DNA from: Eledone cirrhosa
Taxonomy: Eukaryota
Direction of reading: 5' to 3'
Length of the DNA: 64,000 nt
Assembly: GCA_964016885.1 (NCBI GenBank)
Contig: OZ024754.1
Span: 30,752,001 to 30,816,000, forward strand
Part shown: positions 260 to 56,580 of the stretch, in pieces
Layout of the letters: every line of letters begins with the position of its first letter
Numbering within the stretch: the stretch's first letter is position 1
Notes under the pieces: model-generated
Seen by the model: the letters and a program-made list of their open reading frames with translations, nothing else
Database searches by the model: none
Told to the model about the DNA's origin: nothing
Position numbers and translations under genes: made by a program

Positions 260-330
260 TATTTTATCTGATGAAAACACAAATGTTATTGCATGATGAT
301 ATTTGTTTTTGAAATGCGCATAATAAAATA
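260..330 (+). ncRNA. Type I hammerhead ribozyme motif (family A)
   Basis: Stem I tattttat/ataaaata; CTGATGA 268-274; stem II aaacacaaat...atttgttttt; GAAA 311-314; palindromic stem III tgcgca; TA cleavage site 321-322. Confidence 0.85.
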
Positions 331-698
331 CATGGAACTCATTTAACCATCTTTTGATCTTATATATATATATATATATATATATATATATGTATGTATG
401 TATGTATGCAAAAAGTAAATTGAAAAAAACACAACAGACAATGATGTACAATGAAGATATATATTGATTTCATGCTTAATGTAGTAGGAAAAGTCCTAAC
501 GTTTTGGGCGTCAGTCTTTCCTCAGAAAATAGAATGAGAAATTAAAGAAGAAACAGAAAGATAGAGGGGAGTGAACAGGGTAGAAACATTAAAAATTTCT
601 CCGAAAAGAAGATAGTCTGTTTATTTTGTCATCTCATATATATATATATATATATATATATATATATATATATATATATATATACATGCACATATACA

Positions 699-1405
699 TC
701 TAAACTATAATAAAGTAAGGAGTGTGGGACTGCGTCCAGAATATATTTTTTTATTTCGTTTGTAAAATAAGTTGGATTACTTTGAATAAATAATTGTTTC
801 TACTTTTGGCACAAGGCCAGCAATTACCCAGTGTATTACTGGTACTTTATTTTATCGACCCTGTAAGGATGAAAGGCAAAGTTAACCTCGATGAGATTTG
901 AACTAAGAAGGGAAAGGGCCGTAACTCCATGCGTCAAAGCATGGCGTCCGACCCTCTACCGATACTGCCAATTCACCGCCCTTTGAATAAATAATGAATG
1001 AATATTACATAATTTATGTGCTAAATTTCGTGGCTGTTGATTAAATATATTTTATAGCTTACTTAAAGACCTTTAAAATTCACTTCTTTAAAATTTTCAA
1101 ATGTCAACACTTCCGGTTAGCGGCCGTTATAATATAACACTTATAAAAATATCGCATATATTTATGTCACTAATTTTCTCCTAATGCAGTTTATATATAA
1201 TATTGTCTTTTTTTAATGTATCATGGATTACGTTACTGATTACATAAGACAGTGTAACGCAGTCTTCATTCAATTTCTGTGTATATTGTCAATTACGATT
1301 TTATTTGATGTATCATATCTACATGTATATATACTTGCGTATAATATCAATATACACACTACACATGCTAGCAGAAAACTACCCGAGGGGTGGTTTTTCT
1401 GCTAG
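699..1405 (+). mobile_element. Non-autonomous Helitron, copy 1 (contains a SINE insertion)
   Basis: Starts A|TCTAAACTATAATAAA and ends with the hairpin agcagaaaactaccc-gag-gggtggtttttctgct plus CTAG|T. No TSD. A homologous copy lies at 4277-4735. Confidence 0.8.
795..980 (-). mobile_element. tRNA-derived SINE, full length, with 15-bp TSD
   Basis: A-box-like (tggcagtatcgg) and B-box-like (gttcaaatc) motifs; central gcctttcatcctt..ggtcgataaaataaagtaccag; TSD ctttgaataaataat at 780-794 and 981-995. Confidence 0.9.
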
Positions 1406-2154
1406 TATATATAATAATATTTATATTAACAGTTTGTCTTATATATATATCCCAAGACACAAATATTAAAACCCAAAATTGGAAGCGTAATTAATGAAGC
1501 TACAAAAACCAATGATAAAAATGTAGTTGGTGTTGGTGCCAGAAAATAAAGAAACATTGATATTAATTTAGGTATATGTTGAGAATATTATATAGTAACT
1601 GAGAGGAAATCTACTATATTGTGTGTAGTTCTAGAATAGAATAGAATTAGTATTCATAAAAATGTAATGTTATGCTGATAGTTTTGGCTGTAGATATGAA
1701 CTGAGGAGGATTTTTTAGCAGTAGACAGAGTGTAAACTAATAGGACCCTGTTGTGGGAAAGAACGAAATTGGAAATTTGAAGAAACAAAAAATTGACGGG
1801 ATTACAAAGTATTGCTGAGATAAAATCGCACACTTGTGTAAGACAAGTGGTAACATTGATAGATAATAGATAAAAATGATATTGATCTCTGATATGGAAA
1901 AAAAAAAAAAAAAAAAATCTAAAATTAATAGCAAGAAAATTGGGAAGAGTTATTGATACTATTGGTATGATTGATGGTATTAATAGTCTTATCTGATCAA
2001 TATGTGGTAAAGACCAATTTACATTGGAAATTAATGACTCCTTTAGATTGGACAACTAATCCCTGTTAACGAGAGAAAGAAAGGGGGAGAGAGAGGAAAG
2101 CAAAGCAGTTTCCAAATATTTATTTATTGGTCTTGGGGAACTACTAAATGAGGG

Positions 2155-2465
2155 AGTGGAAAAGTACCAAATAAGAGAGGATATTATGTCTTAATAACCA
2201 TGGAAAAGTACCAAATTTGAGAGAGTGTTTTGTCTTAATAAGTGTGGAAAAGTATCAAATGAAAGAGAATGGTATGTCTTAATCGCAATGGAAAAGAACC
2301 AGATGCGAGAGAATGTTAGAGCTTAACAGCAGTGGAAAAGTACCAGGGCGGAAGAAAAGTGCTATATTTAACAGCAGTGGAAAGGCACTAGATGGCAGGG
2401 AATGTTATCTCTTAATTGCAGTGGAAAAAAATCAGGATGGGAGGGAATGTTATATTTTAATGGCT
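2155..2465. repeat. Degenerate ~41-44 bp tandem repeat (gtggaaaagtaccagatgggagagaatgttatgtcttaa...)
   Basis: About 7 diverged copies of the tggaaaag motif at regular spacing. Confidence 0.65.
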
Positions 2466-2679
2466 GTGAAACATGGAATAAATGGTCAAATTTTTAAAGA
2501 CAGATCGCAAAACATATTTGATTCATATTTCAGATGGTTTCTATGGCTGCATTCCTTTCCTAACACCAACCACTTAACAGAGTCTACTGAGTGTATTATA
2601 TCTTGGCTCCAGCACTAGAGAGGTTGTCTTGTCATCAACAAGGTTAAAGGGCCCATGCAGTATTTATTGTTGGCCCTTG

Positions 2680-3165
2680 ATGCTTTGAGTTCAAATCCCA
2701 CCAAGGTCAATTTTATTTATCACCTTTTTGGGTAACCCCCAACCTCAACTTGCCGAACTTACGCGTAAATTAAAAACTATTATTGTCATTATTAGTATTG
2801 CAGTATCAGTAGAACATGAGACACCATGTTTTACAGCATAGAGTTACGGCCCTTTACGTTCTGAGTTCAAATCCCACCGAGGTTAGCTTTGCCTTTCATC
2901 CTTACAGGGTCAATAAAATAAAGCACCAGTAATGCACTGGCATCAACTTTCCCCTCCCCCAAAATTGCTTGCCTTGTGCCTATAATAGTAACCATTTTTA
3001 TTTATCATCATCATCATCATCATGATCATTATTATTATTGGTATTGAGTCCAAATCCTGCCGAGGTTAACTTTGCCTTTCATCCTTACGGGGTCGATAAA
3101 ATAAAGTACCAGTAATGTACTGGGTAATTGCTGGCCTTGTGCCTAAAGTAGAAACAATTATTATT
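2680..3165 (+). mobile_element. Three tandem or partial copies of the tRNA-derived SINE
   Basis: gagttcaaatccc...gcctttcatcc...aaagtaccagtaatg repeated at about 2685, 2860 and 3045, each ending in an (ATT)-rich tail. Confidence 0.8.
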
Positions 3166-3189
3166 ATTGGTATCACAATTGATGTGGCT

Positions 3190-54108: not shown

Positions 54109-54164
54109 TATTTGATCACATGAATGTCTATATTTATTAATATTTTGAAATAATATATATATAT

Positions 54165-54282
54165 AATATAGAAATGGCTTCTACAGGACAAGACCTGTTT
54201 CATTCGAAGGAAATAATCAGAAAAGCCTGATGATTTGCTTCGTATGAAACAGTTCTTGTATTGTAGAAGCCATTTCTATATT
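54165..54282. repeat. Diverged fold-back with a degenerate hammerhead core (CTGATGA 54227, GAAA 54246)
   Basis: Arms 54165-54220 and 54227-54282 with several mismatches. Confidence 0.65.
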
Positions 54283-55429
54283 AAATTTTTATACTCTGCT
54301 ATGTATTGAGTACCTTACTGTGTTTACCCCCAATTGAACCTAGGATACACAAACACACACACACACACACACACACACACACACACACACACACACACAC
54401 ACACACACACACACACACACACACACACAACACACACACACACACACATACACACACTTATTTATATAATCTTTCCATACATAACTTTACCCAACAAAAA
54501 AAGAGAACCCTAAACTAACCAAAACACATAATACATTTACAAGTTAAATAAAATTAAATAAAATTAAATTTAAATTTAAAATTATAATTAAAACCACAAG
54601 TGAAAAACCCTCTTCCCATCACATCATATATATACATATATATATATATATATATATATATATATATATATATATGTATGTATGTATATATATATATGTA
54701 TGCATATATATATGTATGTATATATATATATGTATGTATATATGTATGTATATATATATGTATGTATATATATATGTATGTATGTATATATGTATGTATG
54801 TATATATATGTATGTATATATATATGTATATATATATGCATGTATATATATATATATATATATATATATATATATATATATATATATATATATATATATA
54901 TTTATATATATATATATATATATATATATATATATATATATATGTGTGTGTATATATATATATTCCTATATGTGTATATATATATATATATATGTGTGTG
55001 TATATATATATATTCCTATATGTGTATATATATATATATATATATATATATGTGTATATATATATATATTTCTATATATGTGTGTGTATATATATATATT
55101 CCTATACGTTATGCTTTTGTTGTTTATCCTTCAACTCTGAACCTCGTTAGATTCTCTCTTATCTGTTGGGGGCCTGCTGTCTGTGTTAACCCCAGTGTAA
55201 GGTTTCTGGAAACATTTGAAGCCATATAATGGTGGAAACCTCTGTAAATATATAAGTAGAGTCACATATAGTGAGAGATTAGCTGTGATATCTGTTGACA
55301 CTGGAATCGGGTGGAGTGGTGGTGCAGTGGTGGTGCAATGGTGGTGCAATGGTGTGAAGGGGAACAGTTATTGTGCAATGGCAGTGGTGGAGATTCATCA
55401 GTGCACCATAGTCTGCTTTCACAGTAGTA

Positions 55430-55870
55430 ACAGCGGATTAGCAGTATCGGTAGAGCGTCGGACACCATGTTTCGTGGCAGAGAGTTATGTCCCTTTACGG
55501 TCTGAGTTCAAATCCCGTCAAGGTTAGCTTTGCCTTTGATCCTTATGAGGTCAATAAAATAAAGTACCAGTAATGCACTGGTGTCGATTTACTCAACTTT
55601 CCCCTCTCCTTCAAATTGCTGACCTTGTGCCTAAATCAGAAAACATTATCATTATTATTAGTAGTAGTAGTGGCGGCAAGCTGGCAGTATTGGTAGAAGG
55701 TCAGACGCCATGCTTTGCAGTATAGAGTTATGCCCCTTTACGGTCTGAGTTCAAATCCCACCGTGGTTAGCTTTGCCTTTCATCCTTACAGGGGTCGATA
55801 AAATAAAGTACCAGTAATGCACTGGGATAATTGCTGGCCTTGTGCTAAAAGTAGAAAGAATTATTATTAT
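55430..55870 (+). mobile_element. Two tandem tRNA-derived SINEs
   Basis: Copies at about 55430-55660 and 55672-55870. Confidence 0.85.
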
Positions 55871-56122
55871 TAGTAGTAGTAGTGGTAGTGGTAGTTGTGG
55901 TAGTAGTAGTAATAGTAGTAGTAGTCGCTTATGTTGTTGTTGTTGTTGTTACTGTTGAGGAACAGGTCAGTCCTGATCAAGCAAACCCATGATAAAAGTG
56001 TATAGTGGTAGAGGTTCAGTGGTGTGCCAGTGGTTGCTTTCACACTAGTCTCCATTTCATCATCACCATCATCACCATCATTATCATCATCATCGTCATT
56101 TCATCTGCTATTCCATATATAT

Positions 56123-56262
56123 ATGGCTTAGTGGTTAGAGCATTGGCCTTGCAATCGAAAGGTTGTGAGTTCAATTCTCAGACTGGGTGATGTGTTTTTT
56201 CCTTGAGCAAGACACTTTATTTCACGTTGCTCCAGTTTACTCAGCTGTAGAAATGAGATGAT
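56123..56262 (+). mobile_element. CORE-type SINE 5' part
   Basis: Colinear with 46150-46290. Confidence 0.8.
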
Positions 56263-56580
56263 AAATATTGACATACCCAAAATGCAACCGTTACTTTTGG
56301 AAGACATCAGGGATGTCTTCCAAAAGTAACGGTTGCATTTTGAAAGGGTATGTCAATATTTATTTATAAAACTGGTATATATTGTATTTTGTCTGATGAA
56401 AGCATACCATAATTTAACATGGTATCCTTGAAATATGTCTTATAAAATAGATATGGTTTTATAAATATAGTTTCCATTTGTTAATATCGTATATTTACTC
56501 CAAATACTTGTCGAGTGCTTTATATCAGTTATAAAAATATTTGCTTGTTGTATCCCAACAATTTAAATAGAACTTTTACA
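56261..56580 (+). mobile_element. Family B element with a short fold-back (centre ~56310)
   Basis: gaagacatc-agg-gatgtcttc palindrome; body and tail are homologous to 47250-47496. Confidence 0.8.
56385..56449 (+). ncRNA. Type I hammerhead motif (family B, stem III variant)
   Basis: tattttgt CTGATGA aagcataccat-aatttaac-atggtatcctt GAAA tatgtc TT ataaaata. Confidence 0.7.

Follow-up and report, generated by a model that had tools for sequence, protein, structure and literature searches.

Type I hammerhead ribozyme motifs in a 64-kb stretch of the Eledone cirrhosa genome as probable 3' ends of Penelope-like elements

Hammerhead motifs in the window

A 64,000-nucleotide stretch of the genome of Eledone cirrhosa (contig OZ024754.1 of assembly GCA_964016885.1, forward-strand positions 30,752,001 to 30,816,000), referred to below as the window, is rich in microsatellites, and its sole informative long open reading frame (ORF) is a zf-RVT fragment at 8669-9307 that resembles a long interspersed nuclear element (LINE). 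The window features short insertions that carry type I hammerhead ribozyme (HHR) motifs. These motifs have a fold predicted to self-cleave, and they very probably lie in the 3' pseudo-long terminal repeats (pLTRs) of Penelope-like elements (PLEs), mostly of the Hydra clade with one of Neptune type, of which the window holds only 5'-truncated ends. The motifs were located with a strict type I descriptor, which comprises CUGANGA, a stem II of at least 2 bp, GAAA, a stem III of at least 2 bp, UH, and a stem I of at least 4 bp. The descriptor matched the window exactly eight times, at 260+, 45615+, 45808-, 46732-, 46920+, 47089-, 47299+, and 54043+, and all eight motifs have an 8-bp stem I and a self-complementary stem III of 8 nt. 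A first-pass annotation had listed ten intact cores. Each of the ten motifs is present where it was placed, and eight of them pass the strict descriptor; the other two are imperfect, 6131+ having an unpaired G after A9, a stem III of 2 bp, and an A.A mismatch in stem I, and 56385+ having a U.C mismatch in stem III. The cut sites predicted earlier at 323, 47357, and 54101 agree with the descriptor reading, and the compensatory change in stem I (tattttat/ataaaata versus tatttcat/atgaaata) is seen as described. The ten motifs sort into four families, A and B with four motifs each, C, and D, in line with the proposal of at least four, and they belong to eight insertions. They are not independent because 46732-/46920+ and 47089-/47299+ are arm pairs of near-perfect palindromes (98-99%). 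Beyond these ten, the window contains a copy with a C3U change at 75-145(-), a motif of a family E at 62231+, a motif of a family F at 54227+ with a truncated stem I, and six half-motifs of a family G.

Chance matches in AT-rich repetitive DNA could produce motifs of this kind. The stems are very AT-rich, the folding z-scores of the eight window motifs that were folded as monomers are weak (-0.5 to -2.2) with stem III mostly unformed, and an Rfam scan of the window gave 145 matches at E<=1 with no hammerhead family among them. However, 100 local dinucleotide shuffles of the window gave a mean of 0.04 motifs per 64 kb (maximum 1) against the eight observed, and six altered cores run through the strict descriptor gave 0 matches each. 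In forty arbitrarily placed 10-kb stretches (400 kb) of the 3.0-Gb genome, 13 strict motifs were found versus 0-1 for each of eight altered cores. Together with the covariation of the stems and the fixed position of the motifs in PLE 3' ends, both described below, these counts leave chance with next to no probability. The sample corresponds to ~32 intact motifs per Mb (17-56) and ~97,000 per genome, with a Poisson range of 52,000-166,000 that clustering of motifs would widen. The window is ~4 times denser than arbitrary regions (8 per 64 kb versus 2.1 expected, with 0 in the adjoining 10-kb stretches), which is partly explained by inverted pairs and nesting in (TA)n. The very high-copy, diversified population that had been proposed from the window is borne out by the roughly 1e5 motifs extrapolated per genome and by the several families. 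For comparison, 126,247 hammerhead motifs have been counted in the axolotl (PMC7229834), whose genome is 28.21 Gb (bioRxiv 10.64898/2026.07.22.740005); this is ~4.5 motifs per Mb versus ~32 here, obtained with different descriptors.

The excess covariation of stems across copies, on which the first-pass annotation had made its reading depend, was found. Among 19 distinct A-, B-, and C-like variants, 94% of cells pair versus 35-54% in slid controls, and double changes occur in 14 of 19 pairs, a result reached in 0 of 500 shuffles, although the relatedness among variants inflates these shuffle tests. The inner stem II is the only independent covariation evidence because the descriptor required stem I and the outer pairs; of its 105 cells, 96 are paired, against 75 ± 3 with partners permuted. 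A C.Y mismatch at stem II position 4 is conserved in 18 of 21 cases and is a candidate site at which stems I and II could make a tertiary contact. The common families have a self-complementary stem III, and palindromic stems of this type have been tied to dimer cleavage (PMC4209133). There is some ambiguity regarding the use of the fold, as it could be kept as a protein-binding or reverse transcriptase (RT)-positioning structure that is not used catalytically. The templates appear to read through the cut site, HHR mutants had no effect on insertion in vitro (PMC11167929), a C3.A8 core mismatch is present in one abundant G subfamily, and several families are mismatched at the base of stem II, all of which would suit a purely structural role. 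However, the catalytic core and UH are kept across families whose stems are fully rewritten, family G has a covariant U3-A8 core, and PLE HHRs show weak dimer cleavage in vitro (PMC4209133), so that a purely structural role is rather improbable and a fold that can cleave is preferred.

Reading frames linked to the hammerhead families

Numbers with the prefix L denote loci elsewhere in the same genome. The extension of each consensus in the 5' direction toward an RT and GIY-YIG ORF, which had been suggested as a check, leads in family A to an intact 821-codon RT/GIY-YIG frame outside the window. The family A end has 100% matches on several chromosomes (40 of 771 candidates scored), and 16 of 30 family A loci share ~1 kb or more of upstream DNA that leads into the GIY-YIG frame. 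A genome search with the RT part gave 150 scored matches, 49 of which have the 821-codon frame open by manual count, and the 12 frames that were fetched differ by 0-9 residues. The family A unit is 3.9 kb long and consists of the 821-codon frame (RT, CxCX5C linker, and GIY-YIG), a 1.2-kb 3' untranslated region (UTR), and the HHR, and it is arranged in tandem and inverted pLTR layouts (10 stretches around 9 places). The HHR core is located 1,227 nt past the stop codon, and in tandem arrays the predicted cut falls ~190 nt before the next ATG. Family A moved very recently, as positions 46605-46865 of the window are identical to the master element in L133 over 261 nt. Of six sequencing runs listed, the two labelled as RNA contain only a 0.04 share of the sequence words, and the four runs examined all consist of contigs. 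In one run of unrecorded kind, the pLTR has a much greater summed depth than the ORF start, and loose ends occur at positions 5055 and 5156 of L133; the pattern agrees with two 3' termini and is given no weight here.

An AlphaFold2 model of the family A protein built with a 23-sequence alignment has a predicted local distance difference test (pLDDT) score of 81, versus 32 for a single-sequence fold, and Foldseek places telomerase reverse transcriptases (TERTs) at ranks 1-4 with E ~1e-7. The LIYEC..YFG segment aligns with YKA..YIG of the homologues, which marks a GIY-YIG endonuclease at the C terminus, and a single Cys lies between the GIY and YIG positions. The ORF also features DKT at residue 123, RWT at residue 37 (RWK in many homologues), and the CxCX5C linker, CxxC, and CxH at motif positions 659, 759, and 787, with no CCHH. 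Family A thus has the features of endonuclease-containing (EN+) PLEs, namely a single ORF with a telomerase-like RT and C-terminal GIY-YIG, and tandem or inverted pLTRs with an optional tail. The Hydra clade has been defined by DKT, RWK, a CxCX5C linker, CxxC and CxH, the lack of CCHH, and a length of generally <3 kb (PMC8557442), and family A is assigned to this clade from its motif set (DKT, CxCX5C, CxxC, CxH, no CCHH), its (TA)n target, and its canonical HHR. The 3.9-kb unit is longer than the usual Hydra size, which is descriptive and not strict, because of the 1.2-kb 3' UTR. An insert of ~65-75 residues, rich in Asn, Pro, and Thr and modelled with low confidence, lies between the RT thumb and the linker with the cysteines (residues ~580-656 of the L133 ORF); it is absent from 21 homologues and from family B.

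The remaining families were also compared with their upstream DNA. Family B flanks a 517-codon Hydra-type frame in L191, and Hydra-type frames precede family C in 2 of 25 loci, family E in 1 of 20 loci and additionally in L243, and family G in 5 of 20 loci, the DNA being continuous over as much as 2 kb (92-94% identity) in the last case. Family G was traced with a longer G stretch, the short stub having returned nothing, probably owing to words that are too common. In a sister subfamily, a family D-like end (68-76% identity) follows a Neptune-type endonuclease at 15 of 15 loci, and close copies of family D have such an endonuclease upstream in 3 of 25 loci. Translations of the family D partner reveal a CX4CxxC linker and a CCHH-type GIY-YIG directly upstream of the HHR end. 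Judged by these sequences, families A, B, C, E, and G are assigned as Hydra-type PLE ends and family D as a Neptune-type end. The copies had been described as truncated or non-autonomous; they are truncated PLEs, but the non-autonomous label does not hold for families A, B, C, D, E, and G, which run upstream into PLE RT or GIY-YIG frames elsewhere in the genome. Family G is the most frequent family in the arbitrary regions (28 BLAST pieces in 400 kb) and has a hammerhead with a long stem II. Its core is of the U3-A8 type in four of five independently met long copies (L215, L194, L062, L208, and L238), one expanded subfamily has the C3.A8 core mismatch, and most G copies break inside stem II. 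A novel family G core lacking N7 (CUGAGA/UUGAAA) was considered and rejected, since independent long copies read UUGAUAA, UUGAGAA, and, twice, UUGAAAA; these readings fit the published U3-A8 variant with a variable N7, and the CUGAGAA subfamily then represents a C3.A8 mismatch. At least five further HHR families with a different stem I were met in flanks and arbitrary regions (L217:7265-7325, L195:5657-5718, L069:2675-2739, L145:1712-1795, L188, and L219).

The short copies could also be non-autonomous non-LTR retrozymes, or units resembling short interspersed nuclear elements (SINEs), that move as small circular RNAs processed by the HHR. Most copies are non-coding and 150-350 nt long, family F has no partner ORF in 20 loci, the 5' ends of families F and G are clustered, and retrozymes have themselves been argued to derive from pLTRs (bioRxiv 10.64898/2026.07.22.740005). 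However, short head-to-tail HHR arrays are absent from the window, and the tandem unit of family A is 3.9 kb. The 5' ends of families A, B, and E vary and their longer copies run into PLE ORFs. Families A-E and G do not lack coding partners as retrozymes do. Additionally, the ends do not match the cut site, and the ends of family G cluster inside stem II while its longer copies reach a Hydra ORF. A retrozyme origin is highly improbable on these grounds, and of the two sources named in the first-pass annotation, Penelope-like 3' ends and retrozymes, only the former is retained.

Insertion ends and a proposed mechanism

The insertions sit in (TA)n, in the window and elsewhere in the genome, as had been proposed, and they end at one of two family-specific termini located 55-96 nt apart; in family A the termini lie ~38 and ~134 nt past the predicted cut. 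An arm that ends at the distal terminus is referred to as tailed. Insertion I (family A, Hydra PLE 3' end, 1-360, both strands) is a palindrome with 163-nt arms at 99% identity that is flanked by (TA)n on both sides. Its minus arm is tailed, with a tail that runs ~55 nt past the left edge of the window, and its plus arm is tail-less. The plus arm contains the strict family A HHR at 260-330(+) with a predicted cut at 322/323, and the mirror HHR at 75-145(-) has the C3U core change (UUGAUGA). Insertion II (family A, 45122-45715, both strands; 89% over 530 nt to L031) consists of a tail-only minus arm joined to a plus-strand segment of ~520 nt of 3' UTR and the strict HHR at 45615-45685(+), with a predicted cut at 45677/45678. 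Insertion III (family B, 45772-45993, both strands) combines a tail-less minus arm, which contains a strict HHR with the compensated stem I at 45808-45873(-), with a tail-only plus arm. Insertion IV (46605-47028, both strands) belongs to a young subfamily of family A by comparison with L133; its tailed minus arm (46605-46865) is the segment identical to that intact element, its plus arm is 98% identical, and strict HHRs are found at 46732-46802(-) and 46920-46990(+). Insertion V (family B, 47040-47495, both strands) has 184-nt arms that are 99% complementary, a tail on the plus arm only, and strict HHRs at 47089-47154(-) and 47299-47364(+), the latter with a predicted cut at 47356/47357. Insertions II-V are nested, being packed in 2.4 kb with each in a TA run left by a neighbour, and a 25-nt family A 3' end at 45747-45772 adjoins the family B minus arm.

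The other families are distributed over the rest of the window. The family C 3' end (Hydra-type) at 53987-54150(+) contains a strict HHR at 54043-54108(+) with a predicted cut at 54100/54101, and a family B insertion at 56261-56579 (both strands) contains the HHR with the stem III mismatch at 56385-56449(+). The family D 3' end, which is linked to a Neptune-type endonuclease, spans 6040-6362(+) with an approximate 5' boundary, and its imperfect HHR at 6131-6181(+) has a predicted cut at 6173/6174. A palindromic family E insertion of Hydra type, absent from the earlier list, is located at 62060-62321 (both strands); its HHR core at 62236(+) features a C.A mismatch at the stem II base, an ACC/GGU stem III, and a predicted cut at 62285/62286. 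The family F palindromic stub at 54154-54345 (both strands), whose HHR core lies at 54227, has a U.U pair at the stem II base and lost the 5' strand of stem I at the inversion. Family G is represented by a 3' end at 5760-5898(-) that is truncated inside stem II and contains the HHR 3' half and tail, by palindromic stubs with one tailed arm at 10724-10891 and 56624-56815 (both strands), by a palindromic stub of a divergent subfamily at 60456-60697 (both strands), and by stubs at 53210-53366(+) and 61941-62058, the last not confined to a single strand.

The pairing of arms follows a one-tail rule. Among 96 de-duplicated divergent pairs from families A, B, E, F, and G at the loci analysed, exactly one arm is tailed in 90, both arms in 5, and neither in 1. 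One tail per inverted pair was also found in 6 of 6 pairs of the window and in 9 of 9 pairs of the arbitrary regions, where the arms overall comprise 14 tailed and 14 tail-less ones. The 5' ends lie within 3 nt of the predicted cut in 0 of 61 cases for family A, 1 of 87 for family B, 1 of 42 for family F, and 2 of 115 for family G; family E was left out of this count as most of its 329 matches are TA-repeat artefacts (302 past the cut), and a cluster of family A ends at -216 is the end of homology and not a truncation site. This near absence of 5' ends at the predicted cut suggests that uncut RNA is likely the template for insertion.

A mechanism can be proposed in which the PLE protein nicks (TA)n and starts reverse transcription from two adjacent internal sites of uncut read-through RNA, each nicked target strand likely priming one of the two start sites. 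Both cDNAs would usually abort within a few hundred bases, often at HHR helices (71 of 115 family G 5' ends are in stem II), and joining of the aborted cDNAs would yield a palindrome in which only one of the arms is tailed, often with one HHR per strand. The ribozyme would not be needed for insertion and is probably a slow cutter, assisted by dimerization or protein, that trims multimeric transcripts of tandem copies, with most isolated stubs inert. An alternative accepts the PLE ends and attributes the palindromes to a single cDNA that folds back at RNA hairpins and primes itself, or to template switching. The concentration of G 5' ends in stem II is compatible with it, as are the positions of 25 of 42 family F ends at stem I or the core, the 33 G inversion centres located 2-61 nt away from one anchor (13-30 nt in most cases), and the A and B arms that in some cases stop at the 3' strand of stem II. 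However, fold-back of one cDNA alone leaves the exact other 3' terminus of the second arm in 90 of 96 pairs unexplained, the BLAST end points are confounded by subfamily divergence, and stalling at hairpins may merely set the sites where cDNAs abort. Fold-back is an unlikely origin of the palindromes, though one that deserves real weight. A broader and bolder reading is that this is one of the densest animal hammerhead loads counted, that it stems from a still-active Hydra-clade radiation, and that the one-tail rule reflects a dimeric PLE protein that primes on both target strands in a single coupled event, using two different internal sites of the RNA; taken as a whole it is tentative, with doubt slightly prevailing.

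Besides the weak folding scores and the Rfam result, several observations weigh against these interpretations. A Pfam search of the family A protein returned neither an RT nor a GIY-YIG match, and Pfam GIY-YIG is found in only 1 of the 23 alignment members, weakly (E 0.0012). Family F has no convincing partner ORF in its 20 loci, and the ORF links of families B, C, and E come from 1-2 loci each. The 3.9-kb unit and the tails of 55-96 nt differ from the <3 kb and 30-40 bp published for the Hydra clade (PMC8557442). The coupled two-site priming is read from the one-tail rule, that is, from genomic products only, and an anole PLE protein showed in vitro no difference in start site between the strands (PMC11167929).

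The remaining features of the window are repeats of other kinds. Near-perfect palindromes beside TA runs at 6523-6769 (106-nt arms, 100%) and 60930-61155 (~110-nt arms, 94%) have no visible hammerhead core; the former has a one-sided extension, and both may be the ends of PLEs that lack an HHR, such as Naiads. At 57620-57882 there is an older imperfect palindrome (70%), and a 42-nt perfect palindrome at 5686-5727 is built from the end of a short interspersed repeat. At 19869-28326, 217 copies of a 39-bp unit with CTGAGGA form a tandem array that floods core-only searches, but it was rejected as a hammerhead array as it has no GAAA or stems. SINE-like repeats are abundant (789-984, 2800-3170, 28476-28774, 44713-44904, 55428-55885, 46151-46500, and 56123-56263), and two have weak tRNA-like heads (Rfam tRNA, 24.8 and 28.4 bits). 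The LINE-like frame at 8669-9307 has 212 codons and a weak zf-RVT match, resembles a LINE 3' fragment, and has a related copy in L261.

Comparison with known systems

The value of the locus lies in what it makes available, namely dozens of intact, near-identical ORFs of a young Hydra-clade element and ~1e5 ribozyme-tipped stubs. It offers a large natural record on two points left unsettled by the cited papers, the formation of inverted and tailed PLE insertions and the in vivo role of the hammerhead. The additions to the known picture are the ~32 motifs per Mb, the one-tail rule in 90 of 96 pairs, and the 5' ends that avoid the predicted cut. There is also a caution for annotation, as PLE ends account for many of this genome's short palindromes, which score in Rfam like microRNA hairpins and could be misfiled as miniature inverted-repeat transposable elements (MITEs) or SINEs. 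In the literature searched, which was mostly outside subscription papers, neither an octopus hammerhead census nor a twin-priming account for PLEs was found. A 2026 repeat annotation of Octopus vulgaris lists 31 recently active PLE families, and ribozymes are not mentioned in its main text.

Animal non-LTR retrozymes resemble the present insertions in their type I HHR, low GC content, and high copy number (PMC7229834; bioRxiv 10.64898/2026.07.22.740005), however, they are described as head-to-tail arrays of 150-450 nt without an ORF, whereas the insertions here are inverted or solo ends of coding elements. Neptune-type PLEs share with family D the CX4CxxC linker, a CCHH-type GIY-YIG by the HHR end, and an unpaired base after A9. 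Family D is older (85-90% between copies), and the term Neptune-type, being read from the linker and CCHH, spans Neptune or Nematis.

The PLE hammerheads reported by Cervera and de la Pena in 2014 (PMC4209133) are likewise of type I with a palindromic helix III, occur as many heterogeneous families per genome, are mostly solo truncated copies with opposite-strand pairs 100-700 bp apart, and include the U3-A8 variant. The motifs here are unlike them in having a stem I of 8 bp, a stem III of 3-4 bp, and a cut triplet that is mostly AUA, and their density is above the counts given there (~9,000 in Xenopus tropicalis), although the descriptors differ. Studies on the Poseidon element PAc of Anolis by Frangieh et al. 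in 2024 (PMC11167929) determined that the tail is defined by two internal sites of RT initiation, that HHR mutants still insert, and that HHR cleavage needs protein, and a dimer was predicted. The two internal starts, the AT-rich target, and the uncut RNA template are shared with the present reading. PAc belongs to a different clade, its HHR overlaps the ORF start whereas the predicted cut here lies ~190 nt upstream, and coupling of the two start sites in one insertion is not among the results reported in the sections available.

The closest likeness is to the Hydra clade described by Craig et al. in 2021 (PMC8557442), in which one RT and GIY-YIG ORF, a type I HHR near the 3' end, a (TA)n target, and tandem or inverted pLTRs with a tail are combined. 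Hydra-1_Obim from Octopus bimaculoides has a canonical HHR and a (TA)n target, the supplement includes a Hydra family whose 5' copy is inverted and which has HHRs on the two strands, and the tail is often at one end only. The Hydra HHRs of File S2 include a U.U pair at the stem II base, as in family F, and the stem III of Hydra-1_oBim (acca/tggt) is like that of family E. Family A is set apart from Hydra-1_Obim by eye. A 3-bp stem II, the C.Y mismatch, and a long helix are common to families A, B, and C, a pattern absent from the File S2 rows examined, and the Hydra-type families linked here number at least five, compared with one Octopus family listed in that paper. HHRs, (TA)n targets, inversions, and tails have already been published for Hydra PLEs, and the families described here are new within this known arrangement.

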